From: Chlorobiota bacterium
GTDB lineage: Bacteria > Bacteroidota > Ignavibacteria > OLB7
DNA: 64,000 bases
Direction of reading: 5' to 3'
Assembly: GCA_016710285.1 (NCBI GenBank)
Contig: JADJXR010000001.1
Span: 3,086,955-3,150,954 of the forward strand
A model generated the notes under the pieces. That model saw nothing but the letters and a program-made list of their open reading frames with translations, ran no database searches and had not been told where the DNA came from. The translations under genes were made by a program, and so were the position numbers. Shown here piece after piece: positions 34,013 through 51,256 of this stretch (the first letter of the stretch is position 1; every line of letters starts with the position of its first letter).

Positions 34013-34158
34013 GGGTCGGAACGAAAATGAAGATGAAAGACCTGGTTCTGGGGAACGGACAACCACGGATAATCGCGGCCTTTGCGCGTGCGCCAACAAG
34101 AGTGTGAGTTTGCACAAAGGCCGCCAAATATACAGCCCAATGGTTAAGTTCGCGCCCT

Positions 34159-35382
34159 ATGGTTATTCGTCGCGCTTCGGAAGCACCCCCCGCCGCAACC
34201 CCGTCCCAGCCGGAAATCCCAACCGTTAGCCAGTTCACGCGCCAGCTGCGCGAGGTGTTGGAAGTTGGGTTCCCAGAAGTGTTGGTCCAGGGGGAAATCT
34301 CCGGCTGGAATCGCGCCGCCAGCGGCCACACCTATTTCACGCTGAAAGATGCCGGGGCATCGCTGGGGTGTGTGCTGTGGCGCGGGCGGCAGCTTCGCCA
34401 TGCCATTCGCGACGGAATGAGCGTGGTGGCCGGGGGGCGCATCACCCTGTACGAGCCACGCGGCCAGTATCAGCTTGATTGCACCACCTTGTTCCCGCTG
34501 GGCCAGGGGGCGTTGGCAATGGCGTTCGAGGCGATGAAGGCGCGGCTGCTGGCCGAAGGCTTGTTCGACCCCGAATGGAAGAAGCCGCTGCCGGAGTTCC
34601 CAAAAACCATCGGCCTTGTCACCTCACGCGATGGGGCCGCCCTGCGCGACATCTTGACCACACTCCGCCGCCGAATGCCGTTGGTGAACGTGATGCTCTA
34701 TCCAACATTGGTCCAGGGAGGGGCGGCTGCAGCCGAGATTGCGCGTGGCATCCGCACGCTGAATGCCGTGGGGGGGATTGATGTGATGATTGTTGGGCGC
34801 GGCGGCGGATCCGCCGAAGACCTGTGGGCGTTCAACGAGGAGGCGGTGGCGCGGGCGATTTTTGAGTCGGAGATTCCGGTGATCAGCGCCGTTGGCCACG
34901 AAACCGATTTCACCATTGCCGACTTCGTTGCCGATCTTCGCGCACCAACCCCAACCGCCGCTGCCGAGCTTGCCGTGCGCGACAAATTGGAGTTGTTGGA
35001 GTACGTGGAAGGAATCGCCCAGCAGATGGGCGACCAAGTTTCGGTGCTGATCCGTTCCCACCAGCGCGAGCTGCAGGCATTGCTTCGCAGCCGTGGATTC
35101 TCCCGCCCAGCGGACCTGATCCGAACACACGAGCAGCGGCTGGACGAGCTAACCGGGCGCGCCAACCGCGGGCTTCGGGGGCATCTTCGCAGCCAATCGG
35201 AGGGGCTGCGGCTGATGCAGGCATCGCTGCAGGCCCTGAACCCGGCAAACGTGCTGCGGCGCGGCTATGCGATTGTTGAGCGCGATGGAGTTCCCCAAAC
35301 CGGAATCGCCCAATTGCCAGCGGGAACCGAGGTTGCAATCACCATGGCCGATGGAACACGCAGCGCGGTGATTGGGGAATAA
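34159..35382 (+). CDS. xseA: Exodeoxyribonuclease VII large subunit.
   Basis: OB-fold N-terminus (EVLVQGEISGW...HTYFTLKD) and the XseA catalytic core (GRGGGSAEDLWAFNEE). Confidence 0.85.
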   Translation: MVIRRASEAPPAATPSQPEIPTVSQFTRQLREVLEVGFPEVLVQGEISGWNRAASGHTYFTLKDAGASLGCVLWRGRQLRHAIRDGMSVVAGGRITLYEPRGQYQLDCTTLFPLGQGALAMAFEAMKARLLAEGLFDPEWKKPLPEFPKTIGLVTSRDGAALRDILTTLRRRMPLVNVMLYPTLVQGGAAAAEIARGIRTLNAVGGIDVMIVGRGGGSAEDLWAFNEEAVARAIFESEIPVISAVGHETDFTIADFVADLRAPTPTAAAELAVRDKLELLEYVEGIAQQMGDQVSVLIRSHQRELQALLRSRGFSRPADLIRTHEQRLDELTGRANRGLRGHLRSQSEGLRLMQASLQALNPANVLRRGYAIVERDGVPQTGIAQLPAGTEVAITMADGTRSAVIGE

Positions 35383-35461
35383 CGTTGGCAAACAACACTG
35401 GCAAGGATTGTCTGGCGCGGCACCTCACCCTTCCGCCACACCAACCGGCTGCCAGTTGCAA

Positions 35462-35500
35462 GCAATAAAAAACGCCGGATGAGCTTGCTCACCCGGCGTT
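35462..35500. terminator. Bidirectional hairpin terminator between xseA and the tRNA-Leu gene.
   Basis: aacgccggatgagc / gctcacccggcgtt stem, flanked by A/T runs on both strands. Confidence 0.45.
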
Positions 35501-35502
35501 TG

Positions 35503-35584
35503 TGCGGAAGGCGGGACTTGAACCCGCACGCCTTACGGCGCCACCCCCTCAAGATGGTGCGTCTGCCAGTTTCGCCACTTCCGC
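35503..35584 (-). tRNA. tRNA-Leu (anticodon GAG), type II with a long variable arm. CCA is not encoded.
   Basis: RC folds as follows. Acceptor GCGGAAG/CUUCCGC. D-arm. Anticodon stem CCAUC/GGUGG with loop UUGAGGG (G37). Variable arm CGCCGUAAGGCGU. T-arm GCGGG-UUCAAGU-CCCGC. Discriminator A. Confidence 0.85.
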
Positions 35585-35675
35585 GCACTGAAGGGAGGGC
35601 AAATATAATCGGCGCGGAAATCCTGCCGCACGCCGAAGATGTTCAAGATGGTAATTTGGACCCGCTGCTGGGTGC

Positions 35676-36491
35676 ATGAGTCTTCCAATGAGCTTTCCAA
35701 CCGAACAATTTCTGGGCGGTGTTGCCGCTGCGGCTGCGGTGGCGATTGCGGCGCGGCGTGCCCGTGCGCTTTCGCGGTCCGGCGCGGTGGCAACGGCATT
35801 GCTGGGAAGCGTGACGTTCGGGTTGGGCGGGGTTGCATGGGCGGCCCCGTTGCTGGCGTTCTTTGTGTTCAGCAGCCTTCTTTCCGCAATCAGCAAGCGG
35901 CGTGCGCGGCGCGATTTTGCCGAGGTGTTTGAAAAAGGGGGGGAGCGCGATGCCGGGCAGGTGCTTGCCAATGGTGGCGTTGCTGGCGTGGCGGTGGTGC
36001 TGAACTTCCTCCATCCCGATCCGCTTTGGTATGCCGCTTTTGTTGGGTCCCTTTCCGCCGCCGCTGCCGACACATGGGGAACGGAAATTGGCGTGCTAAG
36101 CCGTGGAAGCGTCCGCTCGGTCCTCACCTTCCGGCTGGTTCCGCCGGGGACTTCGGGTGGGGTGTCGTTGGTGGGAAGCGTTGGCAGCGTTGCCGGGGCT
36201 TGCTTGGTGGCGTGGGTTGGGGCGCTGTTTGTTGGTGGTTCGCTCCGGTTTGCAATCGGCGCAACGGTTGCCGGGATTGCTGGCGCGTTTGCCGACAGCG
36301 CGCTTGGCGCAACCGTGCAAGCCGGCTACCGCTGCCCCCACTGCTTGGCCGACACGGAGCGGAAGGAGCATTGCGGCGCGGCAACGGAACTGGTCCGCGG
36401 CTTCGCATGGGCCAACAACGATGCCGTCAACCTTGCGTGCTGCTTGGTGGGGGCGATTGCGGCAGCGGCATTGCTTGTTTGGAGTGAGTGA
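35676..36491 (+). CDS. DUF92-family integral membrane protein.
   Basis: Gly/Ala-rich polytopic membrane protein with a DUF92-like pattern (ANGGVAGVAVV...AADTWGTEIG). Confidence 0.5.
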   Translation: MSLPMSFPTEQFLGGVAAAAAVAIAARRARALSRSGAVATALLGSVTFGLGGVAWAAPLLAFFVFSSLLSAISKRRARRDFAEVFEKGGERDAGQVLANGGVAGVAVVLNFLHPDPLWYAAFVGSLSAAAADTWGTEIGVLSRGSVRSVLTFRLVPPGTSGGVSLVGSVGSVAGACLVAWVGALFVGGSLRFAIGATVAGIAGAFADSALGATVQAGYRCPHCLADTERKEHCGAATELVRGFAWANNDAVNLACCLVGAIAAAALLVWSE

Positions 36492-36545
36492 TTCCTCCAT
36501 CTGCCACGCTCGAACGAGGGGCGGAAAAAGCCAGGCGCAGAAGCC

Positions 36546-39500
36546 TCAGCGAAGAACCACCACCGGCGTTGCGGCCCACCCGTAATCGGTTTCCAACACC
36601 AGCTGGTAAACCCCGCTGGCAAGTTCGGGAATTGGCAGTTGCAGATGGTGGTGTCCGGCGGCAACCACGTGCGGCGCGGTTTGGTGTTGGATGGTTCCAT
36701 CGGCAGCCACAAGGCGGAAGCGGAGTGTTGCCCAATCGGGAGCATCTACCTCAACGGTGATCTGGTCGCGCGCGGGTTGCGGGCTGATTTTCACCACGCG
36801 TGGTTGCGCCACAAACCGCAGCCCCGCTTCCCAGCAATCGCCCAACAGTGTGAAGTTCCCGTTGACGGTGTCGGCACTCACGTTCCATTTGTTCCAAGCG
36901 AACGATTGGAACTGCAACGGAGTGATCTTCCGGTCCCCAAACATTGCGGTGCAGAACAGGGTGGCAATCGTGTCGGCGTTCGCATCCGATAGATGCCCCA
37001 CAAGCTCCACCGTCGCATCGCCAGTTTTTGGATTGGCCTTATAGGTTGCCGCCCCCCCCGCCGCGCTGTCGAACCGGAGCAGTGCCGTGCTGAAACTGAT
37101 GCTGGTGCGGAAGGTGTCGGGCGCGATTCGGTTGAACGCTGCGCGGTCGGCCAGCTGCACCACAATCGGCAGCCGCACCGGCTGGTTGACGTGCGCCGAT
37201 GCCTCGGGAAGCCGCACGGTGGTTGCCGTTCGCTCCCCCGATTCGCCGCTGGCATAGATGGTTGCGGCAACCCCGCATCTTCCATCAACGATTTCCAACG
37301 TCTGGCTGAATTGCCCGGGCGCGGTTGGAAGAAACCGCACGTTCAGCAACGCGGTTTGCCCGGGCAACGGGTTGGCCGGGGTTGCGCCGGTGATCTGGAA
37401 CTCCCCAGCACTCACCGGAAGATTCCAAGCCAGCGGTGCTGTTCCGGTGTTCACCACGCGCAGCGTGAAGTTGGCGGCTTCGTTCGGCGGATGATTTCCC
37501 GCCACCACAACGCTGTCAAGCAACAGGAACCGGATGGCGTGGCGATACCCGCGCAGCTGGATCGTGTCGTGGCCGCTGGGACCGTTGTTTTTCAGGACCA
37601 CTGCCCCCCGTTTCTCCCCCTCCGAACCTGGGCGGAACCCAATGGCCACAACACCTTTCTGGCCAACCGGAACGCGCAACGGCAACGCCCCTTCAATGCG
37701 GAAATTTCCTTCGGGATCGTTGATGATTGTTGCCGAATCAATCGCCAATTCTGCGCCGCCATTGTTCTCAATCTCCATCATCGCACTCTTCGCGCTCTCG
37801 GCCACGCACCACAAGGTGTCGAACGCGGGGGGGGTGATGGTGGCGATTGGTTGATTCCCGGAAGCCAGCAGTTTCACCCTTGCGGAGTCGGCGCAATTCG
37901 GCTGGTATCCAAAGGCGATTTCGGCATTGAACGTGGTGTTGAACGGAAGCACCAGCAACCGAATATGCAGCCGGACCGAGTCGCCCGGGGCAACGATTCG
38001 GGGGAGCTGCCCATCCAGAAATTTGAACCACGCTTTGTCGTTCCCGCCAATCGCTTCCCCCTGCACCGTTGCCGGAATCGTCCCGCGGTTCCACAACGCC
38101 ACGAAGGTGTCAACCGGGGCGGCGGCTCCGGTGCGGAACGTGATGTTGGGGACCTCGGCAATCAGCATGATGGAGTCGCGGCGGCCACGAAGCGCGATGG
38201 TTGCTGGGCTGGTGGGGTCGTTGGAAACCACCCGCAGGGTCGCCGTTTTTTCGCCGAAGGTTGCCGGGGCAAGCCGCACCGGAACTTGGATTGCCCCCTG
38301 GGGCGGAACCGTGACCGGCCCGCTTGCCGTGGGGATGCTTAGCAGTTGGAAGCCTTCGTTGTTGTCGGCAAGCTCAATCGTGGTGATGGAAAGGTCCACC
38401 GTGCCGACGTTCCTCAGCTGCAGGATGGTGTCGCGTGCGGCTGCGCCGCAATCAATCGCCGGAAGCGCAACGGGCGCAACCGCACCCAACGTGGGGATTG
38501 CCGCGCTCCGCCCGGTAACGATTGTGCTGGCGCTCCCGCACCCTTGTTGCAGCGTGAACCGAAGCTCGGCGCTGGCGGCTTTCCCTGGCTCAGGGAAGAA
38601 GCGTAAAAGAAGGCTCAGGCATTCCCCGGGGGCCAGCGCAAAAGCCCCGCCGCCGCTGGCAATCTGGAACGGGCCATCGCTTGGGATAATCTCTGCTTCC
38701 CCGCGCAAGGTGTCGGTTCCGGTGTTGCAGATGCTGCGGGCAACGGTGGTGTCGAAACGGGTTCGCCCTTCGGGCTGGTTCCCCATATCTATCACGCTTT
38801 GGTGGGTGAATTGGCAGGGCTGGACCCCAATGCCAAAGATGCTTGCGGTGTCGCGTGCGCCGCAGCTTCCGGCCACCACCAGCCAAGCGCGAATCGTGTC
38901 AAGGCGGGTGGGGCCAAAGCGGAGCCGCAGCGGCAGCGATTCCCCGGGATTGATTGTTGCTGGCAGTCCGGAAGGAACCACGCTGAACATCGCTGCGTCG
39001 GGACCGATTGCCCACGCCGAATCCACTTGCAGAGGCCTGGTCCCCGGGTTGCGAATGGCGTTGGGGAAATCGGCCTGGCCAAACTGATAGCGGAGAACAA
39101 CCCCGGCAAACCCAGCATCCCCTTCCAACAACATCACCTGCTGGCGTTCAACGGAAAAGAAGCTGCGGGAGGAATCTTGCAGCGGCTCGATAGGAAGATC
39201 AATCGCCCGAACCCGGTGGTTGTTCAGGTCGCAGAAGTACAGGCGGTTATCGGCCACAATGGGGGCGGTGGGGTAGTTCAGTTGGGCAGCCGACGGGTCC
39301 CCTTTGTCGCCGCTGAATCCCGGCGTTCCGGTTCCGGCGATTGTGGTGATGATGCCGCTTTGCAGGTCCAGCCGGCGGATCCGGTGGTTGGCCGCATCGG
39401 TGATGTAGGCAAACCGCCCGGCCACAGCAATCCCGGAAGGGCGGTCCAGCCGTGCGGCGGTGGCGGGACCTCCATCGCCACCAAATCCTCCAACCCCTCC

Positions 39501-41713
39501 GTCGGCAGTTCCGGCAACGATTGCCGCTTCACCAGTGGAAAGGGTAATCCGGCGGACGACGTTCGCTGCGGTCTCCACCACAAACAGCTCGTCGCCGCGC
39601 AACGCCACCGATGTTGGATTCCCCAAACGGATGCTCCGCGCAGCGGTGGAATCCCCGGGGACCATTGGGCCGGCAATGGTGGTGATGGTTCGCGTCCGCA
39701 GGTCAATTGCCCGTATGCGGTCCACCCCATCGGAGCCGAACAGCGTGGGGTCCAGGCCCGGGCCGATTCTTCCCGCCGCCAGCGCCTGCGGGGAGCTGAA
39801 CGTTGCCGACACTCCATCGCCGCCGTCGCCGCTGTTTCCGGGCTGGCCATTTCCGGCAATGGTTCCAATCGTCCTTGTGCGCCGGTCAATCGCCCTGACC
39901 CGGTTGTTTCCGGCATCGGCAAGGTAGATGCGCTGGGCATCGGCCAGCGCGTGGCGTGGGTTGCGAAGCTGCGCCAGCGTTGCCGGACCTCCATCGCCGC
40001 TGGACCCTGGTTGCGCGGTTCCCGCCACGGTGGTAATCACCCCTGTTGGAAGATGGACTTGCCGGATGCGGTGCGCCGCTTCCTCGGTAATCAGCAGGAT
40101 GCTATCGCTGATGGAAATCCCAGTGGGGCTCCAAAGTTTTGCCCCCAACGCCGCGATGCTATCGCCGCCGTTCCCGCCGCCGGCCACCGTTGTGATGATG
40201 GAGCGTGGGTCGGGGATGGTGGAAACGCGGATGCGATACGCCCCCGCCATTGGCGGTTTCCACGTGTACGAATAGCCCTGCACCGAAGTGATTGCCCGCC
40301 AGATACGATCGGCCCCGGAGTACTCCAGCCGCACCGGTGTCCCCGATGGAACGCCGGCCCAGAAAATCGGCACCGAATCGCAAATGGTGAACGATTCGCC
40401 GCCGGTGGGGCTAAGCAGCCGCAGGGTCCCCGTTGGTTGCGGTTTGGGCGTTCCCCCCACAACCACAACCGGCGCGCTGGGGCAGGGGAGCGTTCCGAAC
40501 GTCACGGTTCCGGTGTCGGGGACCGTGGGGAATGCCGGGGCGTAGCGGATCACCACCGTGCGCCCGCTGTCGCGCTGCAGGGTGAACGGCGGCGGCGCGC
40601 CCCCCCAATCGGCAATGCTGAACGGCTTCCCGGAAAGGAGCAACGCGCTTGCCACCACCACCGAATCGTGCCGGGCGGTGATCCGAATGGAAAGATCGCG
40701 GCTGCCCCCCGCCGGAACCGTTCCGAACCAGAGGAAGGTGTTGCTGGCCTCCAGCAATCCATTCCGAACGGGGGGGGCAAGGTAGTTGCGGCGGTTCTGC
40801 AGCTTCAGCCGAACCAGCGTCATCACAAGGTCGCGCCCCCGCTGGATTGCGCCGCAGCCAATGGGGCTAATCCACTGAATCTTGCATGGCCGATACCCGC
40901 CAACGCCCAACCCAATGCCGCGCATTGCCGCGCGCGATTCCTCCTCGGTCGTCACCATGTCGAACCACTCGCCCCCGGTTTGCTCAACAACGCGCCGCAT
41001 CTCAAAAGGGATTCTGGCGCGGATGATGACCGCATGAATCTCAATCTTCTGGGCCTTTGCCAGCTTGATGATGGAGTCGGCATCCGATTGCTGGATGGAG
41101 GAGCCATCGGTCACCAGAAGGATCATTTTGCGGGTGGCTGCGGGAACGGTTTTGAACGATGCGATCGCGCCGGCACCATCCTCCAGCAACGCGTTTGCGG
41201 TGTTGGTTCCGCCGGTGTGATACAGCAATCCAAGGCTGCTGGTGATTGGCTCCGCCGTGCCGATAAAACCGGTTTCGGTGGTGGGAATGTTGTGGTAGGA
41301 GGTCAGCCCAATGGTGTTCCCGGTGGAGAAATTGAAGTTGTTGGTGAAGTCAATCATGCCGGAAATGGCCAGCGTTAATTTCCCGTTCCCCATGGATCCG
41401 CTGCGGTCGGCAAGAATCCGAATGGCGGTTTTCTGGGGTGGGGTCTGCGGCGGGCAGGTGGGGAAAGGATGGTTGCAACCGGCGCGCCGTTCTCGGTGAT
41501 GCTGAAATCTTGCGGGGTCAATCCCTGAACCACATCCCCGTTGGCATCCAACGCAATAAACCGCGCCGTCACCAGCGGGAACGCGGTGATGTCAACATCG
41601 AACAGATCAAACCGCTGCGCGCTGGCCGCCGGTGGCACAAGGGCAACCAGCCCGCCACACACCAACCAGCAGAGCAGTGGCATCACGTTCCGAAGAATAA
41701 GGCAGATGGGCAT
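36546..41713 (-). CDS. Giant secreted adhesin-like protein (vWA domain, NHL-repeat beta-propeller, multiple Ig-like domains, T9SS CTD). Paralog 1, with a 1-nt frameshift near 41455-41470.
   Basis: The N-terminal ORF 41375-41713 (signal peptide plus start of the vWA domain) and the 36546-41393 ORF join if one C is added in a C-run, giving ...TILSPTCPPQTPPQKTAIRILADRSGSMGNG. This parallels QCPPPTDAGPASVVLVNDHSGSM in paralog 2. NHL repeats (GDGGPA...HR(I/V)R). C-terminal CTD is ISPQPA...SGVYQLVL. Confidence 0.6.
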
Positions 41714-41767
41714 GATTGCTGTGAAGAAAAAATATCTGAGGCAGGAGAATGAAGAGAACGGAGGAAG

Positions 41768-42190
41768 GAATCAACCGCCAAACCCATTTCCCCCCAGCAT
41801 TCAAGGAACAGGGTAGCCGCCCCGACCTCCGTCGGGATTGATAAAAGGTCTTTAGCCTTCGGTGTCTGTAGCTGGCAGAGGTGGGGTGAGTTTCACCGAG
41901 AACGGAATCAACCGCCAAACCCATTTCCCCCAGGATTCAAGGAACAGGGTAGCCGAAGGTCTTTAGCCTTCGGTGTCTTTAGCCTTCGGTGTCTGTAGCT
42001 GCCAGAAGTGACATGAGTTTCACCGAGAACGGAATCAACCGCCAAACCCATTTCCCCCAGGATTCAAGGAACAGGGTAGCCGAAGGTCTTTAGCCTTCGG
42101 TGTCTTTAGCCTTCGGTGTCTGTAGCTGCCAGAAGTGACATGAGCTTCACCGAGAACGGAATCAACCGCCAAACCCATTTCCCCCCAGCA
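41768..42190. repeat. Tandem array of about 3.5 copies of a ~120-bp unit containing REP-family modules (locus D), lying between the two adhesin paralogs.
   Basis: The unit gaatcaaccgccaaacccatttcccccaggattcaaggaacagggtagccgaaggtctttagccttcggtgtctttagccttcggtgtctgtagctgccagaagtgacatgagtttcaccgagaacg is repeated with near identity. The first copy carries ggtagccgccccgacctccgtcgggattgataaaaggtctttagccttcgg. Confidence 0.65.
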
Positions 42191-42262
42191 TTGGGGGGAC
42201 GCTTCGCCGCTTGCGGCGAAGCAGGGGGGCGCGGCGGTGAAACCCTTATCCACTACTCACCC

Positions 42263-45200
42263 TCATCGAAGAATCACCACCGGCGTTGCTGCCCATCCGT
42301 AATCGGTTTCCAACACCAGCTGATAAACTCCGCTGGAAAGATTAAGAACTGGTAGCTGCAGATGGTGATGCCCGGCGGCAACCACCTGCGGCGCGGTTTG
42401 GTGTTGGATGGCTCCATCAGCAGCCACAAGGCGGAAGCGGAGCGTTGCCCAGTCGGGAGCATCCACCTCAACGGTGATCTGGTCGCGCGCGGGTTGCGGG
42501 CTGATTTTCACCACGCGTGGTTGCGCCACAAACCGCAGCCCCGCTTCCCAGCAATCGCCAACAATGGCAAAGGTTCCGTTGACGGTGTCGGCACTCACGT
42601 TCCACTTGTTCCAAGCGAACGATTGGAACTGCAACGGAGTGATCTTCCGGTCCCCCAGCAACGCCGTTCCAAGCAGGGTTGCCAGTGTGTCGCTGTTGCG
42701 GTAATCGCCGGCGATGGTGAGCGTCACCTGGCCCGTGGTTTTGTCGCGGACCTGCGAGACCAGCTGGGCACCAATCACCGAATCGCACCGCAGGATTGCG
42801 TTGCTGAAGGAGATTGTGGTGCTGAAGGAATCGGGCGCGATCTGTTGGAACGTCGCAGGGTCGTGTATCCGAAGCGTGATTGGGAGCAGCACCTGGTGCC
42901 CCACGTAGGCCGATGCCACCGGAAGCGTCACCTGGGTGGAGGTCTGCCGGCCCGAACGCCCGAACAACGCCAGCGGCAGCGATTGATCGCAAAGTTTTTC
43001 GGCCACCAGAATGCTGTCGGCAACAATACCATCGGCGGCGGGCGCAAAGCGGATGGTGAGCGTTGAAGATTCCCCAGGCTGCACGATTGGCGGCGCGGCG
43101 GAAACAATGGTGAACGCCCCAACCGAGCGCGGCACATTCCATTCAATCGGGAAGGTCCCGGTGTTGGTGGCGGTGATTGTTTGCTGGGCCGCTCCGCCGC
43201 TGGGGAGCAATCCAAAATCAATCGTTTGTGCCGAGAGTATGAAGCTGATGGTCTGTTTGATCCCCACCAATGGGACCCGAATTGCGGTGTCGGCACCGTC
43301 GTTCACCAGCACGGCGCGGGCCAGCGTCACCCCGTTGCTGCGGGGGCGGAACTGCGCCGTAATCGTTTGCGTGGCAAGGGGGGGAAGGGTGATTGGCGGC
43401 GCGCTTGGCAGCCGCAGCGTGAACTCGCCGTCGGGGTCATCTTCGATTCGTATTTCGGTAATCGTCAGCGGGTCGGCCCCTTCGTTCGTAATCTGGAAGG
43501 TCCCTTCGGTCATGGTGTCGCGGTCGCAAACCAGTTGGCGGATGTTTGGGGTTGTGGCCGCCAACAGCGGTCGCGAGCCGAGCGTGTTCAGGGCAACCCG
43601 CAGCGTATCTGGGCCGCAATTTGGGCTGAAGGCCAGCCGTAATTCCGCTTGGAAAATCGCCCCCGCCGAACGCTGCAACGCGCGCACAGCAAACCGCGCG
43701 GAATCCCCCGGCAGGATTGCCCGAGGCGTTTGCCCTGGCATCAGCAAAAACTTGCTTGCATGGTTCCCAACAATGCCCGCATCGGTGATGGAAATCGGCA
43801 AGGTTCCGGTGTTCCACACCACCACGAACGTATCCACCGGGAAGCTGGCTGCGGGGTGGGTAAACGTCAGCGAGCCTTGCTCGGCACGTGCGCCGATGGT
43901 GTCGCGCTGGCCGGTGAGTGGGATTGCAAAGGGGCTGGCGGGGTCGTTTGATATCACCCGCAGCACGGCCCCTTTTGTGCCAGCCGTTGCTGGATTGAAC
44001 CGCACCCGCAACGTGTCGCTTCCGCCGCCAGGGATCACCATTGGCGCGGCTGGGGTTGGCGGGTTCAGCAGTGCGAAGCCTTGATCGGCAGGAAGGATGT
44101 CGGCATTGGTGATGCTAAGCGGGATGTCGCCCAGGTTCTGCACGGCAATGATGGTGTCGTGCGGGGCGGCGGTGCAAACCGTTGTGGGGAATCCCACGCC
44201 AGCAACCGAGGCAAGCCGCTGCGGCGCAAGCCCGCGCCCGTACAGCGTTGTGGAAGCGTATCCACATTCGGTTGGAATGTTGTACTCCAATTCCGCCGTG
44301 ATCCTTCCCGACGCAAGGGGCGCGAACCGCACCTGCACGTTTAGGCAATCCCCAGGCTGCAACGTAAACTTCCCGCCGGTGGAAAGAAGCCGGAACGCTC
44401 CGTTGGGCGGATTCAACTCCAATCGGCCCGAGATTGGTGCGGACCCGGTGTTGCACAGCGGGACGGTCAGCACCGTATCCTTGGCTTGGTTGCCAAGCAC
44501 GATTTCGCCAAGCTCGGCCAGCGGGGTGAAGGTAAGGCCACAGGGGAGAAGGCCTTCGCCGCGAAGCGCAAGGGTGTCGGCAATTCCGCAAGGGCCAAAG
44601 ATCACCAGCGTTGCCGAAAGCGTCCCGGCGCGTTGTGGGAAGAACCGAAGCTCAACAGTGCGGCGGTCGTTGGGGTTCAGGATGTCCGAAGTCAACCCCG
44701 ATACGCCTTCGAACGAGGCGGAGTCGGGGCCAACAATGGCGAACGAGTCAATGGCGGCGGCAACGCTGCCAACATTGCAGATGGTTTGCGGCAGCAACGT
44801 GTCGCGCCGGCTGCCGATTGCTTGGCGGCCAAAATCCACCGTGCGGTTCGGGGTCCAGGGGCGAAGCAGGATGGAGGGGCGTGCAACCGTGAATGCTTGG
44901 CTGTTGCTGTCAACGCCGGCATCGGTGGGAAGCTGGAACGCGCGGACGCTGTTGTTCCGAACATCGCAGAAATAGAGCGTGCCGTTGTACACCAGTGGCG
45001 ACATCGGGAAATTGATCTTGCTTTCGTTGGCAAGTTTCCCTTCGCCGCTGTAGCCGGCAACCCCTGTTCCCGCCACCGTTCTTGTTGCTCCGGTCAGCAA
45101 GTTCACCCGAAGAATCCGGTTGTTGCTGGCATCGGTGATGAATAAGTTTTGGCCAACAACCGCCACCCCCGTTGGCGACCGCAGTTGCCAATTGCTGATT

Positions 45201-47425
45201 GGCTTGCTGCCGGGGTCGGTGCTTACTCCAACAAGGTCTTGAATCTGGTTTGCCCCCAAATCGGCGCGGCGCACAAGGTTGCTTCCTGCCTCGGCAATGA
45301 ACATCTCATCCCCCTGCATCGCGATTCCGATGGGGGCAAGCAGATACGCCCCGCGAGCGGTTCCCCGTTCCAGCAAAATCCGATTTCCCACTTCGGTGGA
45401 GATGGTTCCATCGGTAAGGCTAATGGCGCGGATGCGGTAGCTGTCGTCGGAGAAAAACAGGTAGGGGATGCCTTGCGATCCGTAGGACCCAAGGGTGAAA
45501 TTTAGCGGGCCGTAGATCATCGCCGCCCGTGCATCGCCGCCGTCGCCGCTGAACCCCGCTTGGCCGATACCAGCAGCAGTGCTGATCTGCCCCGTGGCAA
45601 AATCCACCATGCGGACGCGGTGGTTATCGTGGTCGGCAATGTAGGCCCGGTCGTTCATGGCAAGCACCCCCGCCGGACCCGCCAGCCGTGCCTGGTTGGC
45701 CGGGCCTCCATCGCCGGAATTCCCCGGCGCGCCGGTTCCCGCCATGGTGCTGATAATCCCTGTCTGCAAGTTCACCACCCGCACCCGGTGCCCACCGGAT
45801 TCGGCGATAAACAATCGGTTGTTGCTGATGGATATTCCCGTTGGGGAGCGTAGTTCGGCAGCGGTTGCTTGGATAAGGTCCCCACCGGGTCCGCCGCCAG
45901 CAACGGTGAAAAGTGGGGAAGAGGTAAAATCGTTTGCCGAGACGCGAATCCGGTACGGCCCGGCGCTTGGCGGTGCCCACATCATTTGGCCACCGGTGGC
46001 GGTGTCAATAAAGTGCCATTGCTTATCGCTGCCGGAATACTCCACCCAGACCTTCGTTTCGGGAGGGGGGCCGGCCCATTGAATCAGGATGCTGTCGCAG
46101 CCGGAATAGATTGCGCCACTGATGGGAGAAAGGAGTTGAATCTGGTCCCCTCCCTGCGCCGGACGGTCGCTGCCGCCGGCAAGGAAGATGTCGTTGGCGG
46201 GGCAAGGGTCGGTGGTAAGTTGCAGCAGTGCGGTGTAGGAGCCGTGCCGGTCGGCATCGAACCGGACGCTAAGGACGCGCTGCTGCCCGGCGTCCAGGGT
46301 GAACGGCGGCACGCTTCCCCCCCAATCGGTGATGCTGAACGGTTGCCCTGCGGTAATGGTCGCCCCCTGCACCGTGAACGGCCCGCGCTTTGCGGTGATG
46401 GTGCATTGCACCACCCGCCCGCTCCCTTCCGGATAACCACCAAACCAAAGGAACGCTGGCTGCGCTTCCAGCACCGCCACTTTTTCCTCGGGGGCTATGT
46501 ATCGGACCTCGGCTTTTTTGCCGTGCGGGATTAACTCAATTTTGGCGGTGCGGAAGATGCTTTCGTCCCCGCAAATGGGTTTCACTTTCCAGCGAAGCGT
46601 GCACGGCGCGTAGCCCTGGTTGCTGATGGCAATCGAGCGATACACCCCCTGCATCTCCCCTTTGCTGTTGACGTTGCTGTACCACGTCCCGCCGGTTTCC
46701 TCGGCAATCTGCCGCAGCGAAAAAGGGATGGATAGGCCGATCGTGATAACGTGAATCTCGATGTTTAAGGCCTTTGCATTGTTGATGATCTGCGACGTTT
46801 TTGTGATCGTCCCCGACAAGCCATCGGTAAGGAACACCAAGATGCGGCGGTTGTTGAGGGGGCGGTCGGAAAGCATGGTGATGCCGCCAAGCAGTGCGTC
46901 AAGAAATGCGGGGTTGTAGTCGGTCCCGCCATCGGCACGCATGGTGTCCATTGCGGCGATCAAATGGGAGGGGGAGGAGCGGAAATCGCAAAGGATGGAG
47001 GGCTTGGTGTTGAAGGCCGTCAGGGCAACCTCGCTTCCTTGCTGGAAATCGAACGTGGTTAAAAATGCGCGGGTCCCCTCCTTCACAACATCCAACCGCG
47101 AAACGCCCGATTCGGTTTCTTCAATCATCGAGCCGCTGTGGTCGTTCACCAGCACCACGCTGGCCGGGCCGGCATCCGTCGGTGGGGGGCATTGCGCTTG
47201 CACCACGGCCTGGGCCGCGACACCATTATCGGTAATCGAAAAATCATCGGTGAAAAGGTTGGTGATTGGCCTTCCCGCGCCATCCAGCAAAAGGTACTTT
47301 GCCGAGATTTCAGGGTACGCCGAAGCATCCACGCCAAACACCGAAAACGATTGCGCGGAAAGAGAACAAGCAAGGGAAAGAAGCAGCAGCAGAGAAGTCG
47401 TCGAGTATCGTAGCATCGGGGGCAT
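42263..47425 (-). CDS. Giant secreted adhesin-like protein (vWA/MIDAS, NHL-repeat propeller, multiple Ig-like domains, T9SS CTD). Paralog 2, intact.
   Basis: Signal peptide MPPMLRYSTTSLLLLLSLACSLSAQ. vWA with DHSGSM...LTDG. NHL repeats. The C-terminal ~150 aa are about 95% identical at DNA level to paralog 1. Confidence 0.65.
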   Translation of the reverse strand: MPPMLRYSTTSLLLLLSLACSLSAQSFSVFGVDASAYPEISAKYLLLDGAGRPITNLFTDDFSITDNGVAAQAVVQAQCPPPTDAGPASVVLVNDHSGSMIEETESGVSRLDVVKEGTRAFLTTFDFQQGSEVALTAFNTKPSILCDFRSSPSHLIAAMDTMRADGGTDYNPAFLDALLGGITMLSDRPLNNRRILVFLTDGLSGTITKTSQIINNAKALNIEIHVITIGLSIPFSLRQIAEETGGTWYSNVNSKGEMQGVYRSIAISNQGYAPCTLRWKVKPICGDESIFRTAKIELIPHGKKAEVRYIAPEEKVAVLEAQPAFLWFGGYPEGSGRVVQCTITAKRGPFTVQGATITAGQPFSITDWGGSVPPFTLDAGQQRVLSVRFDADRHGSYTALLQLTTDPCPANDIFLAGGSDRPAQGGDQIQLLSPISGAIYSGCDSILIQWAGPPPETKVWVEYSGSDKQWHFIDTATGGQMMWAPPSAGPYRIRVSANDFTSSPLFTVAGGGPGGDLIQATAAELRSPTGISISNNRLFIAESGGHRVRVVNLQTGIISTMAGTGAPGNSGDGGPANQARLAGPAGVLAMNDRAYIADHDNHRVRMVDFATGQISTAAGIGQAGFSGDGGDARAAMIYGPLNFTLGSYGSQGIPYLFFSDDSYRIRAISLTDGTISTEVGNRILLERGTARGAYLLAPIGIAMQGDEMFIAEAGSNLVRRADLGANQIQDLVGVSTDPGSKPISNWQLRSPTGVAVVGQNLFITDASNNRILRVNLLTGATRTVAGTGVAGYSGEGKLANESKINFPMSPLVYNGTLYFCDVRNNSVRAFQLPTDAGVDSNSQAFTVARPSILLRPWTPNRTVDFGRQAIGSRRDTLLPQTICNVGSVAAAIDSFAIVGPDSASFEGVSGLTSDILNPNDRRTVELRFFPQRAGTLSATLVIFGPCGIADTLALRGEGLLPCGLTFTPLAELGEIVLGNQAKDTVLTVPLCNTGSAPISGRLELNPPNGAFRLLSTGGKFTLQPGDCLNVQVRFAPLASGRITAELEYNIPTECGYASTTLYGRGLAPQRLASVAGVGFPTTVCTAAPHDTIIAVQNLGDIPLSITNADILPADQGFALLNPPTPAAPMVIPGGGSDTLRVRFNPATAGTKGAVLRVISNDPASPFAIPLTGQRDTIGARAEQGSLTFTHPAASFPVDTFVVVWNTGTLPISITDAGIVGNHASKFLLMPGQTPRAILPGDSARFAVRALQRSAGAIFQAELRLAFSPNCGPDTLRVALNTLGSRPLLAATTPNIRQLVCDRDTMTEGTFQITNEGADPLTITEIRIEDDPDGEFTLRLPSAPPITLPPLATQTITAQFRPRSNGVTLARAVLVNDGADTAIRVPLVGIKQTISFILSAQTIDFGLLPSGGAAQQTITATNTGTFPIEWNVPRSVGAFTIVSAAPPIVQPGESSTLTIRFAPAADGIVADSILVAEKLCDQSLPLALFGRSGRQTSTQVTLPVASAYVGHQVLLPITLRIHDPATFQQIAPDSFSTTISFSNAILRCDSVIGAQLVSQVRDKTTGQVTLTIAGDYRNSDTLATLLGTALLGDRKITPLQFQSFAWNKWNVSADTVNGTFAIVGDCWEAGLRFVAQPRVVKISPQPARDQITVEVDAPDWATLRFRLVAADGAIQHQTAPQVVAAGHHHLQLPVLNLSSGVYQLVLETDYGWAATPVVILR

Positions 47426-47595
47426 AACACACCTTCAATAAGGTTGATACAAACGACCGAAATGGAGACGCAGAAAAATCACACTTCCCCCCAAGAAAAA
47501 CAAGAGAGGAGAGGGAGTTTTTTCGCGATCTACCGGCGGTAAACCGATGCACCGTTGCGATGCACGCCCCCGGGGAAGCCAAACCACTTGGGGAG

Positions 47596-48228
47596 CTAAT
47601 ACCCCAATTCTTTCAGCCGCGATTCCGTTAGCCCCGCGTTGGCCGGGGCCACAAGGTTGCGGATGTACTTCCCCAGCATATCGAACTCTAGATTCACAGC
47701 ATCCCCTTCGCGCAGGTCGCGGAACGTCGTCACCGAAAACGTGTGGGGGATCACCGAAACCATGCAGGCCGATTCCCCCACCTGCGCCACCGTCAGCGAC
47801 ACACCGTTAATGGCGATGGAGCCAACCGGAATCACCAACGGAGCAAAGCTGTCGGGATAGCGAACCCAGTAGAGCCAGGAGCTTTCGCGGGTGGTGGCTT
47901 CGGCAACCGTGCCAACGCAATCCACATGGCCCTGCACAAAATGGCCGCCAATCCTGTCGCCAACCCGCAAGGCACGCTCAAGGTTTACGGCGGTTCCGCT
48001 GGCAAAGCTCCCCAGTGTGGTTTTCTTCAGCGTTTCCTCCACGGCCACCACTGCGAACCAATCGCTTCCCCGTTCCACCACGGTTTGGCAGCAGCCGTTC
48101 AGGGCGATTGAGTCATCAATCTTCAGATCATCCATCACGCGGCTTCCGGTAAGTTCAAGCCGCACCGCGCCCCCCTCGCGAATCGCCCTGCGGACCGTCC
48201 CGATTTCTTCAACTAATCCAGTGAACAT
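47596..48228 (-). CDS. ribE: Riboflavin synthase alpha subunit.
   Basis: MFTGLVEEIGTV...SIALNGCCQTVV...GHFVQGHVD...SIAINGVSLTV is the two-lumazine-binding-repeat pattern. Confidence 0.85.
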   Translation of the reverse strand: MFTGLVEEIGTVRRAIREGGAVRLELTGSRVMDDLKIDDSIALNGCCQTVVERGSDWFAVVAVEETLKKTTLGSFASGTAVNLERALRVGDRIGGHFVQGHVDCVGTVAEATTRESSWLYWVRYPDSFAPLVIPVGSIAINGVSLTVAQVGESACMVSVIPHTFSVTTFRDLREGDAVNLEFDMLGKYIRNLVAPANAGLTESRLKELGY

Positions 48229-48255
48229 GGCTGGTTTGTGTGGTTCGGATGGAGT

Positions 48256-48519
48256 TTAGGCGTATTTCAGCGTCGCGATTTCATCCTCAATCACCTCGCG
48301 CAAGGCCGGCTTGATAAAACGATCCTGAAGCCCAACCGAATGGAGCGACCGAGCGATGATATGAATACGCCGCCCCATATCGTGGCGGCGGTTGACAAGG
48401 ATTACGCGTTGGCTTTTAACAGTGCAGAGACCTCCATCGAAGTCCCCAAGTTCCGAGCGGATGGAGAGGCCCATCTCCTGCGCGAGCATCTTCAGCTCGT
48501 CGTAGATTTCTTGGTGAGT
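48256..48519 (-). CDS. Small hypothetical protein.
   Basis: An ORF of ~88-108 aa (MTHQEIYDELKMLAQEMGL...). No family recognised and the start is uncertain. Confidence 0.25.
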   Translation of the reverse strand, partial: THQEIYDELKMLAQEMGLSIRSELGDFDGGLCTVKSQRVILVNRRHDMGRRIHIIARSLHSVGLQDRFIKPALREVIEDEIATLKYA

Positions 48520-48587
48520 CATAGATGCCAGCAAAATAAAATTTTGATGATGTTGGGCAAGGGTGGGGGGGATAAGAGACAAACCAA

Positions 48588-48680
48588 GGTAGCCGCCCCG
48601 ACCTCCGTCGGGATTGATAAAAGGTCTTTAGCCTTCGGCGTATCAGACTGGGCAGGCTAAATACCTTGTCGGGGCTATTT
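48588..48680. repeat. REP/MITE-like repeat locus E (single copy).
   Basis: ggtagccgccccgacctccgtcgggattgataaaaggtctttagccttcggcgtatc...ggcaggctaaataccttgtcggggc. Confidence 0.55.
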
Positions 48681-48727
48681 TCAAATCAAGACAGAAAGCC
48701 GTTTGGCGCAAGCCGTATTTTCCCCGC

Positions 48728-49750
48728 ATGGAACAAATAGGTGTGATCTTGTTGAACCTGGGCGGCCCCGACTCGTTGGAGGCTATCCGCCCGTTCCTTC
48801 GCAACCTTTTTCTTGATCCAGAGATCATCAGAATCCCACTTCCCAAGCCGTTGGAAAAGCTCTTTCCCAGGAAGCTGTTTGCGGAGGTTGTTGCGTGGCG
48901 GCGCACCCCAAAAGTGCGCCCGAACTACCAACAGATTGGGGGGAAATCGCCGCTGGTGGAGCGAACCGTGGCCCAGGCCCAGGCGTTGGAGTCGGAGCTG
49001 AACCGCCGCTTTGCCGGAACAGCGCAGTTCCATGTGAAATTGGGGATGCGCTACTGGCATCCGTTCACCCAGGCTGCCGCCAACGAGTTCCGCAGCCAGG
49101 GGATTCGGAACGTCTTCTTGCTCCCCCTGTATCCGCAATATTCCCGCACCACCACCGGCTCCAGCGTGAAAGAATGGCGGGACCTTCACCGCAGCCAGTT
49201 CGGGCGTTGGTTCCGGGTGAAGTCGGTGCGCGATTACTACAGCCACCCGCAATACATCGCCTCGATCAACGAACGGATTGAAGCCACCATCCGCAGCAAG
49301 TTCAGCGATGCCGAACGGCGCGGGCTTCACCTGCTTTTCTCGGCTCACGGCACCCCAATTTCCGAAGTAAAAGCCGGCGACCCGTATTCGGGGCAGATTC
49401 GGAAAACCGTGGAGTTGGTGATGGAGCTTCGCGGCAACGATTACCCCCACCATCTCTCGTTCCAAAGCCGCGTGGGACCGGTGAAATGGCTGCAACCATA
49501 CACCCAGGATACGATTGCCGAATTAGGGAAGAAAGGGGTGAACAGCCTGCTGGTGATCCCCATTGCGTTCGTTACGGACCACATCGAGACGCTGCACGAA
49601 ATTGACATCGAGTTCCGCGAAGAAGCCCACCACGCGGGGATTGCGAAGTACGAAGTGATGTACGCCCTAAACGCCGAACCTCCATTCATCGCCGCCCTTG
49701 CCGACGTTGTGGAACGGAGGTACAAAGGGCGGATCCACAGCCACGGATAA
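48728..49750 (+). CDS. hemH: Ferrochelatase.
   Basis: IGVILLNLGGPDSLEAIRPFLRNLF...RYWHP...HGTP are canonical ferrochelatase blocks. Confidence 0.9.
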   Translation: MEQIGVILLNLGGPDSLEAIRPFLRNLFLDPEIIRIPLPKPLEKLFPRKLFAEVVAWRRTPKVRPNYQQIGGKSPLVERTVAQAQALESELNRRFAGTAQFHVKLGMRYWHPFTQAAANEFRSQGIRNVFLLPLYPQYSRTTTGSSVKEWRDLHRSQFGRWFRVKSVRDYYSHPQYIASINERIEATIRSKFSDAERRGLHLLFSAHGTPISEVKAGDPYSGQIRKTVELVMELRGNDYPHHLSFQSRVGPVKWLQPYTQDTIAELGKKGVNSLLVIPIAFVTDHIETLHEIDIEFREEAHHAGIAKYEVMYALNAEPPFIAALADVVERRYKGRIHSHG

Positions 49751-49864
49751 GCCGCAAACCCGGGACCACAGGAACAACGGAACAGCCTTCGGCACGCATA
49801 ACCGAATCATACAGTTGGGGTAATTCTTTCCAAGATTTCTTTCACGGCACGCGCTTCCATCATC

Positions 49865-51256
49865 ATGCTCTCCTCCCTTATCATCGGCGGCGGTATCTCC
49901 GGCGCGGCATTGCTCCACTACCTTGCCGAGGCTGGGGATGATGTGATGCTGCTGGAGAAAGGGGAGCGGCTTGGCGGGGTTATCGGAAGTTACCGGAACG
50001 AAGCCGGGGCGTTGGTGGAAACCGGGCCGAACAGCACCCAAACCAGCAATCCCGATTTCCTCCATCTGGTTGCATCGCTGGGCCTGCTGGACCAAATGGT
50101 TGAGGCGGACCCGCTGGCCCGCAATCGCTACATCCTTCGCGGCGGGAAGCTCCACCCTGTGCCGATGTCACCTCCGGCATTTCTTCGTTCCTCACTCTTT
50201 TCTGCTTCGGCAAAACTGCGGCTTCTGCGCGAGCCGTTTGTTGGCCCTGCCCCGGCAGGTTCGGCGCAGGAGGAATCGGTGGCGGAGTTCGTTCGGCGGC
50301 GGATTGGGCCGGAGTTTTTGGAGTATGCTATCAACCCGTTTGTCTCGGGGGTGTATGCCGGGCGGCCAGAGCAATTATCGCTGCGCCATGCCTTCCCAAA
50401 ACTCCATGCCCTTGAGCAACAGTATGGGAGTTTGATTCGCGGGGCAATTCGTGGCGGGCGGGCGCGGCGGCAGGCCGCAAAACGGGGCCAGGTCCCGCGC
50501 GACCGCGCCAAGCTGGTCTCCTTCCGTGAAGGAATGGGGGTGATTCCCGCCGCGATTGAAGCGCGATGGGGTCGCCAAGTTCGGCTGGGCGCGCCGGTGG
50601 ACCGCTTGGAACGCCAGGCCGATGGCGGCTGGCTGGCGGTTTCGGGGGGGGATGTTTTCCGCGCCAAAAGGGTGATCCTTGCAACCGATGCCGGCACAGC
50701 TGCGGGGCTTCTGGAACCGCACCACGCCCCGGCGGCGCAATCGCTGCGGGGGATTGAGTATCCCCCGGTTGCCGCTGCCGTCAGCACGTACCGCCGCGCC
50801 GACATCCGCCACCCGCTTGATGGCTTTGGGATGCTGATCCCCGAAGTTGAAAACCGGAAGATTCTTGGGGTGATCTTCTCCTCCACCTTGTTCCCGCAGC
50901 GTGCCCCGCAGGGGATGGTGACGTTGACAACGTTTCTTGGCGGTGCGCGCCAGCCGGAAGTCGCGCTGCTTGGTCAGGATCGGCTCCGCCAACTTGTCTT
51001 TGGCGAACACGCGGCGTTGCTTGGTGCCGCCGCGCCGCCCCGCACGTTCAACCTATCGGTGTGGCCGCGGGGGATACCGCAGTACAACGTTGGCTACGGC
51101 GGGGTGCTGCGGGCGATTGAGGCTGCCGCGAAGGACCTGCCGGGGCTGCATCTTGTTGGAAATTACCACGGGGGCGTTTCCGTGGCCGACTGCGTGAAAT
51201 CTGCCCGCGCACTGGCCGCAACCCTTCTTGCACACACGACAAACCCAAACCGTTGA
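49865..51256 (+). CDS. hemY: Protoporphyrinogen oxidase (HemY-type, FAD-dependent).
   Basis: N-terminal FAD-binding [15 protein letters not shown]...[16 protein letters not shown] family over its length. Confidence 0.85.

Follow-up and report, generated by a model that had tools for sequence, protein, structure and literature searches.

The stretch of DNA analysed here, called the window, comprises 64,000 nucleotides (nt) of contig JADJXR010000001.1 from a Chlorobiota bacterium (GenBank assembly GCA_016710285.1). Two large neighbouring genes of one family, which we name B and A, lie head to tail on its minus strand, and the open reading frame (ORF) list confirms the pair as it had been put forward in an original prediction made from the sequence alone (Table 1). 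The length of about 1,720 amino acids (aa) given there for both proteins holds for B, whose ORF is intact, but not for A, which is split by a 1-nt deletion. B is built, in order, of a signal peptide, an N-terminal β module, a VWA domain, immunoglobulin (Ig)-like domains, a six-blade NHL propeller, seven choice-of-anchor-D Ig domains, a cohesin-fold module and a C-terminal sorting domain (CTD). The bodies of A and B are strongly diverged, whereas their 3′ ends are nearly the same.

Identity between the two genes jumps at residue ~1585. At the protein level it is 38.5% for the body alone, 42% when the whole gene is counted and 84–96% in 50-aa windows of the tail; nucleotide identity changes in parallel, from ~0.40–0.60 in the body to 0.87–0.96 in the tail. 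A blastn comparison gave one strong match between A and B, the last 431 nt at 90.0%, and the last 393 nt, from the GDRKITPL codons to the stop, are 91.9% identical in the window and 95.9% identical in L001, an assembly of a sister strain of the same species (GCA_039810445.1). The left edge of this block is sharp; its right edge is the stop codon, beyond which the downstream flanks are unrelated. In B it begins three strands before the end of the cohesin-fold module and takes in the linker and the complete CTD. The original prediction had given ~40% identity for the N-terminal regions and ~95% over the last ~450 nt. The former figure and the abrupt 3′ rise stand, and the tail values are lower or shorter, as given above, the predicted ~95% being close to the figure for L001; the pairwise profile has a sharp 3′ discontinuity instead of uniform divergence along the genes. 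No further copy of the tail was found in the window by blastn or tblastn. The 3′ identity is far beyond chance, and the observation is real.

The same discontinuity is seen at silent sites. Third-codon-position identity between A and B is ~0.4 in the body and 0.76–0.90 in the tail, and the number of synonymous substitutions per site (dS) falls from 1.35 in the body, near saturation, to 0.23 in the tail. The longest identical runs in the tail are 95 and 50 nt, against 20 nt in the remaining ~4.8 kb. For comparison with other genomes, gene copies are labelled W_ for the window, L1_ for L001, L2_ for L002/L057, L8_ for L008 and L4_ for L004. One could suppose that no recombination took place and that purifying selection is just much stronger on the 3′ end, as a secretion signal, than on the rest of the protein. 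The segment just before the CTD (GDRK...AGLRFVAQPR) is indeed conserved in all classes and species of the family, with 61–95% aa identity within the clade, and a secretion signal must stay compatible with a single machinery (PMC11285876). Selection on protein, however, leaves synonymous sites unhomogenised, and long identical DNA runs such as those in the tail count against it as well. Between species, moreover, the tails of orthologues are not conserved at the DNA level: for W_B and its orthologue L2_B, tail dS is 1.70, and nonsynonymous divergence (dN) is 0.23 in the tail versus 0.13 in the body, while the CTD of the class A orthologue L2_A is only 40% identical to that of W_A. As orthologous tails are saturated and the bodies are the better conserved part, selection acting on the sequence fails to explain the identity within one genome, and we regard this explanation as very improbable. 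A gene overlapping on the opposite strand was also considered as a cause of the tail conservation and rejected, only spurious high-GC ORFs being present there. Taken together, the comparisons point firmly to homogenisation of the tail by recent intragenomic recombination.

Comparison of the window with L001 bears on how recent this was. W_B and L1_B are the same over 5005 nt but differ at 16 sites within the last 157 nt. L1_B has the base of the A gene at every one of these sites, and three interspersed sites keep the B state, so that 16 of the 19 variable sites are A-like; from the ~2.3% background, some four unrelated differences would be expected over this length. The pattern suggests that the paralogues exchanged sequence in one haplotype after the strains split. 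Tail dS between the B and A genes of L001 is 0.125, below the value in the window. For A, the two strains differ at 121 positions in the first 4544 nt and at none thereafter. The A-like end of L1_B points to exchange that is recent and probably still continues. More widely, blocks with no differences between the window and L001 (e.g. 42420–50026 and 32036–37170) alternate within 32036–56000 with blocks diverged by ~2.4%, a result of either frequent recombination between strains or haplotype switching in assembly.

The strain comparison also bears on the state of gene A. In a three-frame translation, the coding frame of A changes from frame 1 to frame 0 at the frameshift site, where alignment to L001 places a 1-nt gap (window position 41464). 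A is intact in L001 (1722 aa) and in L058 (protein P0039), a contig of ‘Chlorobi bacterium CHB2’ (GCA_021404615.1) of the same species; both carry one extra C, giving run lengths of 4, 5 and 5 C in the three assemblies. L058 is 99.56% identical to window positions 36730..41999 by blastn, with a single gap. Between the window and L001, A shows dN of 0.009 and dS of 0.066 (dN/dS = 0.14) and is under purifying selection, from which it follows that A was functional until very recently. The deletion is either a very recent inactivation or a homopolymer sequencing error, and A should be flagged as frameshifted in the window sequence. Programmed −1 frameshifting was rejected: the site has no X XXY YYZ slippery sequence, and the other assemblies simply carry the extra C. 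The B orthologue of L001 (P0001) is the copy whose first 5005 nt are identical to those of the window; because of its differing last 157 nt, a look-up with the exact protein sequence of window B gave no match.

Table 1 Features of the B–A locus. Positions are those of the window; aa numbers refer to the encoded proteins.
Feature	Position	Strand	Basis or remark
Gene B	42263..47425	minus	intact 1720-aa ORF
Gene A, paralogue of B	36546..41713	minus	1722 aa only after frameshift repair
Gene A as it stands, first ORF	41375..41713	minus	112 aa, signal peptide; aligns with the start of B
Gene A as it stands, second ORF	36546..41393	minus	1615 aa
Frameshift site in A	41460..41463	minus	C4 run inside TTTCCCC; C5 in two other assemblies
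Homogenised 3′ block of B, 393 nt, aa 1591 to stop	42263..42655	minus	91.9% identical to the A block
Homogenised 3′ block of A, 393 nt	36546..36938	minus	100% identical to the L001 A tail
VWA domain of B, aa 90–255, MIDAS residues	46661..47158	minus	Pfam VWA and VWA_2
NHL-repeat region of B, aa ~505–830, limits approximate	44936..45913	minus	Pfam NHL and TEN_NHL
Choice-of-anchor-D/ASH Ig-like array of B, aa ~840–1480, limits approximate	42986..44908	minus	NF012200 and Pfam
Cohesin-fold module of B, aa ~1495–1622, directly before the CTD	42560..42943	minus	AlphaFold2 (AF2) and Foldseek
C-terminal β-sandwich of B, aa ~1637–1718, probable type IX secretion system (T9SS) type-A sorting domain, ‘C-type’ lineage	42272..42517	minus	PF18962, TIGR04183, AF2, Foldseek
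B–A spacer, 549 nt	41714..42262	minus	GC hairpin after the B stop and tandem repeat; 238 nt shorter in L001
127-nt tandem repeat, 2.7 copies, 97% matches	41848..42185		Tandem Repeats Finder; embeds the 21-nt hairpin
Conserved segment before A	~41714–41760		counterparts at L004 34–64, L008 ~11189–11221 and L057 ~9960–9987

The full ~1720-aa architecture was found only in metagenome-assembled genomes (MAGs), under the labels Candidatus Kapaibacterium/Kapabacteria, Ignavibacteria, Chlorobi(ota) and Bacteroidota and in some evidently mislabelled bins. MAGs with the family that are labelled Armatimonadota, Alphaproteobacteria, Hyphomicrobiales or Chitinophagaceae, L008 (JADZEY010000122.1) among them, are probably cases of mis-binning or mislabelling. 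The bodies (residues 100–1480) fall into three old classes, B, C and A. Identity between classes is 36–41%, and among species it is 79–87% within class B, 76% within class C and 72–75% within class A. The genes are arranged as a B-C-A array in L002/L057 and L008, with at least B-C in L009/L010, and as a B-A array in the window, L001 and L004; more distant relatives have a single copy in a different neighbourhood. Class C has no member in the genome of the window.

Identity matrices for the body, the N-terminal part of the cohesin module, the segment that precedes the CTD and the CTD itself (last 89 residues), together with nucleotide profiles, show that the types of CTD do not track the classes of body. 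The CTDs of W_A, W_B, L1_A and L1_B are 92–100% alike, and their nearest relatives are the class C CTDs of L2_C (67–70%) and L8_C (66%). The B orthologues of the three-gene arrays (L2_B, L8_B and L5_B) have a separate CTD type, 49–55% identical to that of W_B. L2_A (P0042) has yet another, 40–43% identical to the window CTDs and 29–43% identical to all others, and this is presumably the native class A tail. C-type CTDs also occur on the class A bodies P0040 and P0041 and on L4_B, in the other two-gene array. An exhaustive HMMER search of representative proteins with the 130-aa tail gave the same picture: the best matches were class C P0043 (72%), class A P0040 (67%) and class B P0003 (64%). 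Matches of at least 60% came only from B, C and A representatives, and none outside the family exceeded 43%; a dozen weaker matches, when compared with the lengths of the proteins that hold them, proved to fall at the extreme C-terminus.

The points at which one tail type gives way to another differ from gene to gene. W_B changes from B-like to C-like ~255–285 nt before the stop, in the invariant ...GDCWEAGLRFVAQPR... linker. In L4_B the switch lies ~165–195 nt before the stop, and the sequence there is 43–51% identical to the B gene of the sister species and 73–80% identical to the C gene of that species. P0040 and P0041 have class A sequence as far as AGLR and C-type sequence from FVAQPR on. 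W_A switches at GDRKITPL, and the segment that follows (residues 1591–1631) is B-type, with 90% identity to W_B and 68–83% to class C. A different patch is seen between L8_B and L8_C, which share 91–96% nucleotide identity over the initial part of the cohesin-fold module. L004 and L008 are sisters (their B bodies are 87% identical, versus 80% to the window), and L008 retains C; on the simplest reading, the crossover that removed C took place at least twice. The differing tract limits imply repeated events. The recent 3′ conversion of the original prediction is upheld by the contrast in dS between tail and body, the saturated orthologous tails, the incongruent groupings of bodies and tails and the tract that seems to differ between two strains. 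The history is, however, more complex than a single recent conversion, the shared CTD being of the class C type.

The reading that we favour, to which we assign a probability of about 0.75, is that B and A are old, diverged paralogues, that a fusion of B with C came next and that conversion of the A tail by that of B followed. The ancestor would have had a B-C-A array, as still found in L002/L057 and L008. Unequal crossover in the highly conserved ...GDCWEAGLRFVAQPR... linker would have fused the B body to a C-type CTD and deleted the C body, leaving a B-A array, and the same fusion would have arisen independently in the L004 lineage. The chimeric B tail, with B-type strands and a C-type CTD, would then have overwritten that of A by conversion, starting at codon ~1591 and ending at the stop. 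Since then the two tails would have diverged slightly and exchanged sequence again, giving the A-like 3′ end of B in L001. Recombination is probably concentrated at the 3′ end because pairing between the classes needs a degree of conservation that only the linker and the final cohesin strands offer. Recombinants probably survive selection, the CTD and the strands before it being an interchangeable secretion cassette. Joint transfer of the CTD and preceding strands is consistent with experiments in Porphyromonas gingivalis, in which contact of the CTD with the preceding domain was needed for secretion (PMC11285876).

Several observations weigh against this reading or limit its detail. The order of events and the direction of the difference between L001 and the window are reconstructions, and either haplotype may have undergone the exchange. 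The conversion tracts reach to within 4 nt of the stop codon with no homology beyond, which ordinary two-sided conversion explains poorly. All comparison genomes are metagenome assemblies, in which breaks and haplotype switches are to be expected at a ~400-nt repeat of 90–96% identity; L005, L009, L010 and L058 are contigs that stop within the tail or shortly before it. The B-tail variant of L001 could accordingly be a chimeric consensus, the window/L001 mosaic changing state in or near both tails.

The position of the tract ends would fit a single structural event, such as an unequal crossover or partial duplication of the 3′ cassette, with no continuing conversion and with all later differences due to mutation and exchange between strains. 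Tracts that end at the stop without downstream homology suit a junction-forming rearrangement better than a two-sided patch. The differences between the L001 and window B tails also run on into an unusually divergent proximal spacer (~7 mismatches and an 8-nt indel within ~35 nt), so that one of the strains may have imported the stretch from a more distant relative. A single event sits badly, however, with the combination found at A, where a B/C-type tail is joined to the gene’s own downstream flank (a convergent DUF92 gene, syntenic in L057): this needs two junctions, that is, a replacement. It also leaves the uniform A-likeness of the 16 differences in L001 without a source, and it runs counter to the variation of tract limits among lineages. 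We consider it unlikely.

A further alternative is that collapse, haplotype switching or consensus polishing of the repeated segment produced the pattern during assembly. Contig ends do lie at such places, at aa 1522 of the C gene in L005, at aa 1553 in L009 and L010 and 184 nt before the A stop in L058; the alternation of 0% and ~2.4% divergence between the window and L001 changes state 157 nt ahead of the stop codon in B and ~624 nt ahead of that in A; and the frameshift in A sits in a homopolymer. The two tails in the window nevertheless differ at 32 of 393 positions, in clustered patches, and so are not collapsed. The A tail recurs exactly in L001 and, to the contig end, in CHB2, and the B tail recurs exactly in L001 up to 157 nt before the stop. 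Beyond that point, the L001 B tail is a fine mosaic that passes into B-specific spacer after only 5 shared bases, and a k-mer path, we infer, could not yield it without real reads of that form. Mosaics of the same kind with different break points are present in unrelated assemblies of other species (L002, L008, L004, P0040 and P0041). The main finding is therefore not likely to be an artefact of assembly, an explanation we rate as quite improbable. Assembly collapse, which the original prediction had named as a possible refutation, is countered by the differences between the tails and by their replication; the strain-level detail is less secure.

Within the favoured reading, a bolder version can be imagined, in which the linker and CTD form a 3′ ‘secretion cassette’ that spreads by itself. 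The C-lineage CTD would have repeatedly replaced the native B and A CTDs in separate Kapabacteria lineages and outlived its own gene, deleted at least twice by the same crossover. If true, it would mean either biased conversion or selection for the one CTD that suits the secretion machinery best, together with the cohesin strands on which it packs. We hold this version to be doubtful.

The domain architecture proposed for both proteins is supported by Pfam and NCBIfam matches for the VWA domain with its metal ion-dependent adhesion site (MIDAS), the NHL repeats and the Ig-like domains. The VWA domain of B scores 43.6 bits with PF00092 (cut-off 23.8) and 47.8 bits with PF13519 (VWA_2; cut-off 27). 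That of A scores 24.0 bits with PF00092, a value that is marginal because the ORF is truncated. The MIDAS pattern DxSxS...T...D (D95, S97, S99, T168 and D201) is invariant or nearly so in an alignment of 11 family members. NHL reaches 47.0 bits in B and 35.6 in A (cut-off 20), and TEN_NHL 40.8 and 46.8 bits, respectively (cut-off 27.1); six NHL repeats can be counted by eye in the translation, and the repeat pattern is also present in the family consensus. NF012200 (choice_anch_D) matches B with 153.7 bits in seven stretches and A with 124.8 bits in four (cut-off 45), so that the Ig count in B is seven choice-of-anchor-D stretches where about eight had been predicted. Further Pfam matches of B are ASH (81.3 bits), HYDIN_VesB_CFA65-like_Ig (81.9 bits), Cep192_D4 and DUF1573.

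The cohesin-fold module was absent from the earlier list of domains. An AF2 model of the last 240 aa of B (mean predicted local distance difference test (pLDDT) score 87.7) consists of two β-sandwich domains. The first (residues ~15–142 of the model) matches many cohesins of the Protein Data Bank (PDB) in Foldseek, with E values of 1e-8 to 1e-5 and target-normalised template modelling (TM) scores of 0.57–0.66, and the module before the CTD is on this model a cohesin fold, a nine-strand jelly-roll. In searches by sequence, the Pfam family Cohesin (PF00963) gave no match at E ≤ 10 on the last 200 aa, and a PDB-sequence profile search with the tail gave only weak matches to FlgD Ig-like domains (E 0.05). 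As a further and equally doubtful possibility beside the bolder version above, the module, which lies next to the anchor, might recruit partner proteins, in which case the proteins would be surface scaffolds and not simple adhesins.

Assignment of the CTD to the T9SS rests on its placement and on the family as a whole. T9SS type-A CTDs are compact Ig-like seven-strand (3+4) β-sandwiches that fit the machinery of their own species and have to pack against the domain in front of them (PMC11285876). TIGR04183 scores 15.7 bits on the B CTD (cut-off 23), and PF18962 (Por_Secre_tail) scores 16.1–18.2 bits on B and 13.7 bits on A (cut-off 27). Across the family, PF18962 picks up 12 of 13 tails at E ≤ 1 (best E 4.4e-6), and more distant VWA/choice-of-anchor-D relatives carry a precomputed PF18962 match. 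The match covers positions 1–68 of the 72 in the model and residues 1641–1714 of 1720, at the extreme C-terminus. An AF2 model of the last 92 aa (pLDDT 94.4) is all-β with eight strand elements, and Foldseek places the mirolase CTD 8qb1 (TM 0.62/0.65), PorU 6za2 (TMq 0.68) and PorZ 5m11 among its matches. On the family-level match, the window CTD is probably a divergent member of the type-A T9SS sorting domains: the T9SS CTD of the original prediction stands as regards its extreme C-terminal placement and the match of the family, although the window copies themselves are sub-threshold.

Inspection of the N-termini suggests a signal peptide in both proteins. B begins with MPPMLRYSTTSLLLLLSLACSLSA, followed at the expected cleavage site by QS, and A has ...LVALVPPAASA followed by QR. 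An A-Q pair occurs at this site in 9 of the 10 complete family N-termini inspected; the pattern corresponds to the Q-rule of Bacteroidetes, which is also strong in Ignavibacterium (PMC5837995). Export of A/B-type proteins by Sec and then by the T9SS to the cell surface is on balance rather likely. Several points stand on the other side. Neither window CTD passes the curated TIGR04183 or PF18962 thresholds; generic Ig sandwiches, such as the MG domain of α2-macroglobulin, outscore T9SS CTDs in Foldseek, so that the fold matches are not specific to the T9SS; none of the machinery genes (PorK/L/M/N, Sov/SprA, PorU or PorV) is found in the 64-kb window; and the literature goes no further than to suggest that a T9SS may occur in Chlorobi/Ignavibacteriae (PMC5837995). 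An ORF of 1844 aa at 25846–31380 (plus strand) has no Pfam match save a sub-threshold Por_Secre_tail at its extreme C-terminus (21.7 bits versus 27); it is a second putative T9SS cargo nearby, unrelated to A/B and without their tail.

The VWA/MIDAS domain, the propeller and the Ig array together make a ligand-binding or adhesive role a reasonable inference, and the proteins may possibly be anchored at the surface as ligand-binding proteins. The suggestion that they are S-layer-associated finds no echo in the domain searches, as no S-layer homology (SLH) family is among the Pfam or NCBIfam matches of either protein. Antigenic variability, which had also been proposed, finds no support: there is no sign of diversifying evolution, B being identical over 5 kb between two strains and A having the low dN/dS given above.

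These data also speak to a contingency mechanism (phase or antigenic variation), in which the C-run would toggle A and exchange of tails or cassettes would diversify a surface antigen. The proteins are large and probably on the surface, the run is C4 in the window and C5 in two other assemblies, and the copy number of the spacer tandem repeat varies between strains. But a run of 4–5 nt is far shorter than known slippage tracts. What is exchanged, moreover, is not the exposed body but the sorting domain, a part expected to be removed by cleavage or to lie buried; and no recombinase or reverse-transcriptase gene was identified among the neighbouring ORFs scanned against Pfam. Together with the strain conservation, this makes such a mechanism highly unlikely.

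The spacer between B and A holds several repeats. Its shorter length in L001 means that the copy number of the 127-nt repeat varies between strains; the fold of one unit is no better than that of shuffled sequence (z −1.15). A perfect 21-nt hairpin (CCGAAGG-CTAAAGA-CCTTCGG) occurs in five exact copies, all on the minus strand and between called ORFs, at 18287–18307, 18431–18451, 31594–31614, 41953–41973 and 42080–42100, where zero are expected by chance. Elsewhere it was found, among the loci fetched, only on the CHB2 contig of the same species, and it looks like a species-specific REP-like element. Directly after the B stop, at 42177–42230 (plus strand), lies a GC-rich hairpin, CTTCGCCGC-AA-GCGGCGAAG, which is probably terminator-like. 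It scores 29.8 bits with the Rfam family Whalefall-1, under the gathering score of 37, and we do not take it as a real member of that family. A promoter/terminator scan of the spacer gave nothing above expectation.

Between species, no homology of the spacers was detected save ~30 nt just upstream of the A start codon, and since the spacers are otherwise unalignable they cannot test the fusion model. The ~30 nt conserved before the class A ATG (…TTCTTCTC.CC.ACA.C…CAGCA(A/T)TC ATG; Table 1) may be a translation-initiation or regulatory element, to judge from their conservation. At gathering thresholds Rfam gave only a tRNA gene (RF00005, 47.5 bits) at 35503–35584 (minus strand), between xseA and the DUF92 gene and ~1 kb downstream of A. 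A mobile-element or phage context was rejected, the neighbours being the housekeeping genes xseA, DUF92, ribE-like, hemH, hemY-like, hemB, hemL, recG, ligA and ffh.

The locus offers a clean and measurable instance of recombination at work on just one module of paralogues that are saturated elsewhere, and it indicates that the sorting domain of a putative T9SS cargo can pass between genes as one piece, along with strands of the domain before it. It has practical consequences: tails of this kind break or mis-join short-read assemblies, several public contigs ending there, and C-terminal domains are unfit for inferring orthology in these families. The finding opens no new biological question by itself, and the protein family is uncharacterised. 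At the level of domains, the proteins resemble those named after NF012200 and the VWA proteins of the TIGR03436 type. The window genes pass NF012200, while the match to TIGR03436, at 42.8 bits, is below its cut-off of 81.25, and records of their relatives are named ‘choice-of-anchor D domain-containing protein’ or ‘von Willebrand factor type domain protein’. Such names apply at the level of domains only, however, and the full ~1720-aa architecture has no curated family or studied member.

Among characterised T9SS cargo, the rgpA, kgp and hagA genes of P. gingivalis undergo rearrangement of modular adhesin domains and allelic exchange (PMC5266723). Like the genes described here, they encode large T9SS-type surface proteins with a conserved CTD of ~80 residues, C-terminal modules are swapped between paralogues by homologous recombination and the groupings of domains are incongruent. 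They differ in that the swapped modules are exposed adhesin domains (CADs, DUF2436), in dispersed genes of a cultured pathogen, whereas in the window the sorting domain and the end of the cohesin fold are swapped between adjacent genes, otherwise ~40% identical, of an uncultured Kapabacteria-type bacterium. The KLIKK proteases of Tannerella forsythia, in turn, are clustered T9SS cargo genes with a nearly identical CTD (PMC4404884), and the structure of the mirolase CTD has been determined (PMC11285876). They share with B and A the clustering of cargo genes with strongly different bodies and near-identical C-terminal extensions or CTDs, and the mirolase CTD 8qb1 is among the fold matches. The KLIKK bodies, however, represent different catalytic classes, and the authors proposed that proteases already in existence had been fused to a common signal peptide, N-terminal extension and C-terminal extension (PMC4404884). 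In the window, by contrast, the bodies are homologous paralogues, and the shared tail would be traceable to a third paralogue, now deleted.

Concerted evolution of tandem bacterial paralogues by gene conversion or unequal crossover is general, as in the duplicated tuf genes and in families of surface proteins. The locus shares with such cases the sharp discontinuity in identity, the homogenised synonymous sites, the incongruent groupings of segments and, probably, the tracts that vary between strains. It is in this sense a clear but ordinary case of concerted evolution, a known principle in a poorly studied lineage. It differs from the general pattern in that one terminal module only is affected, in genes otherwise near saturation, and in that homogenisation is probably coupled to recurrent loss of the middle gene of the three-gene array.

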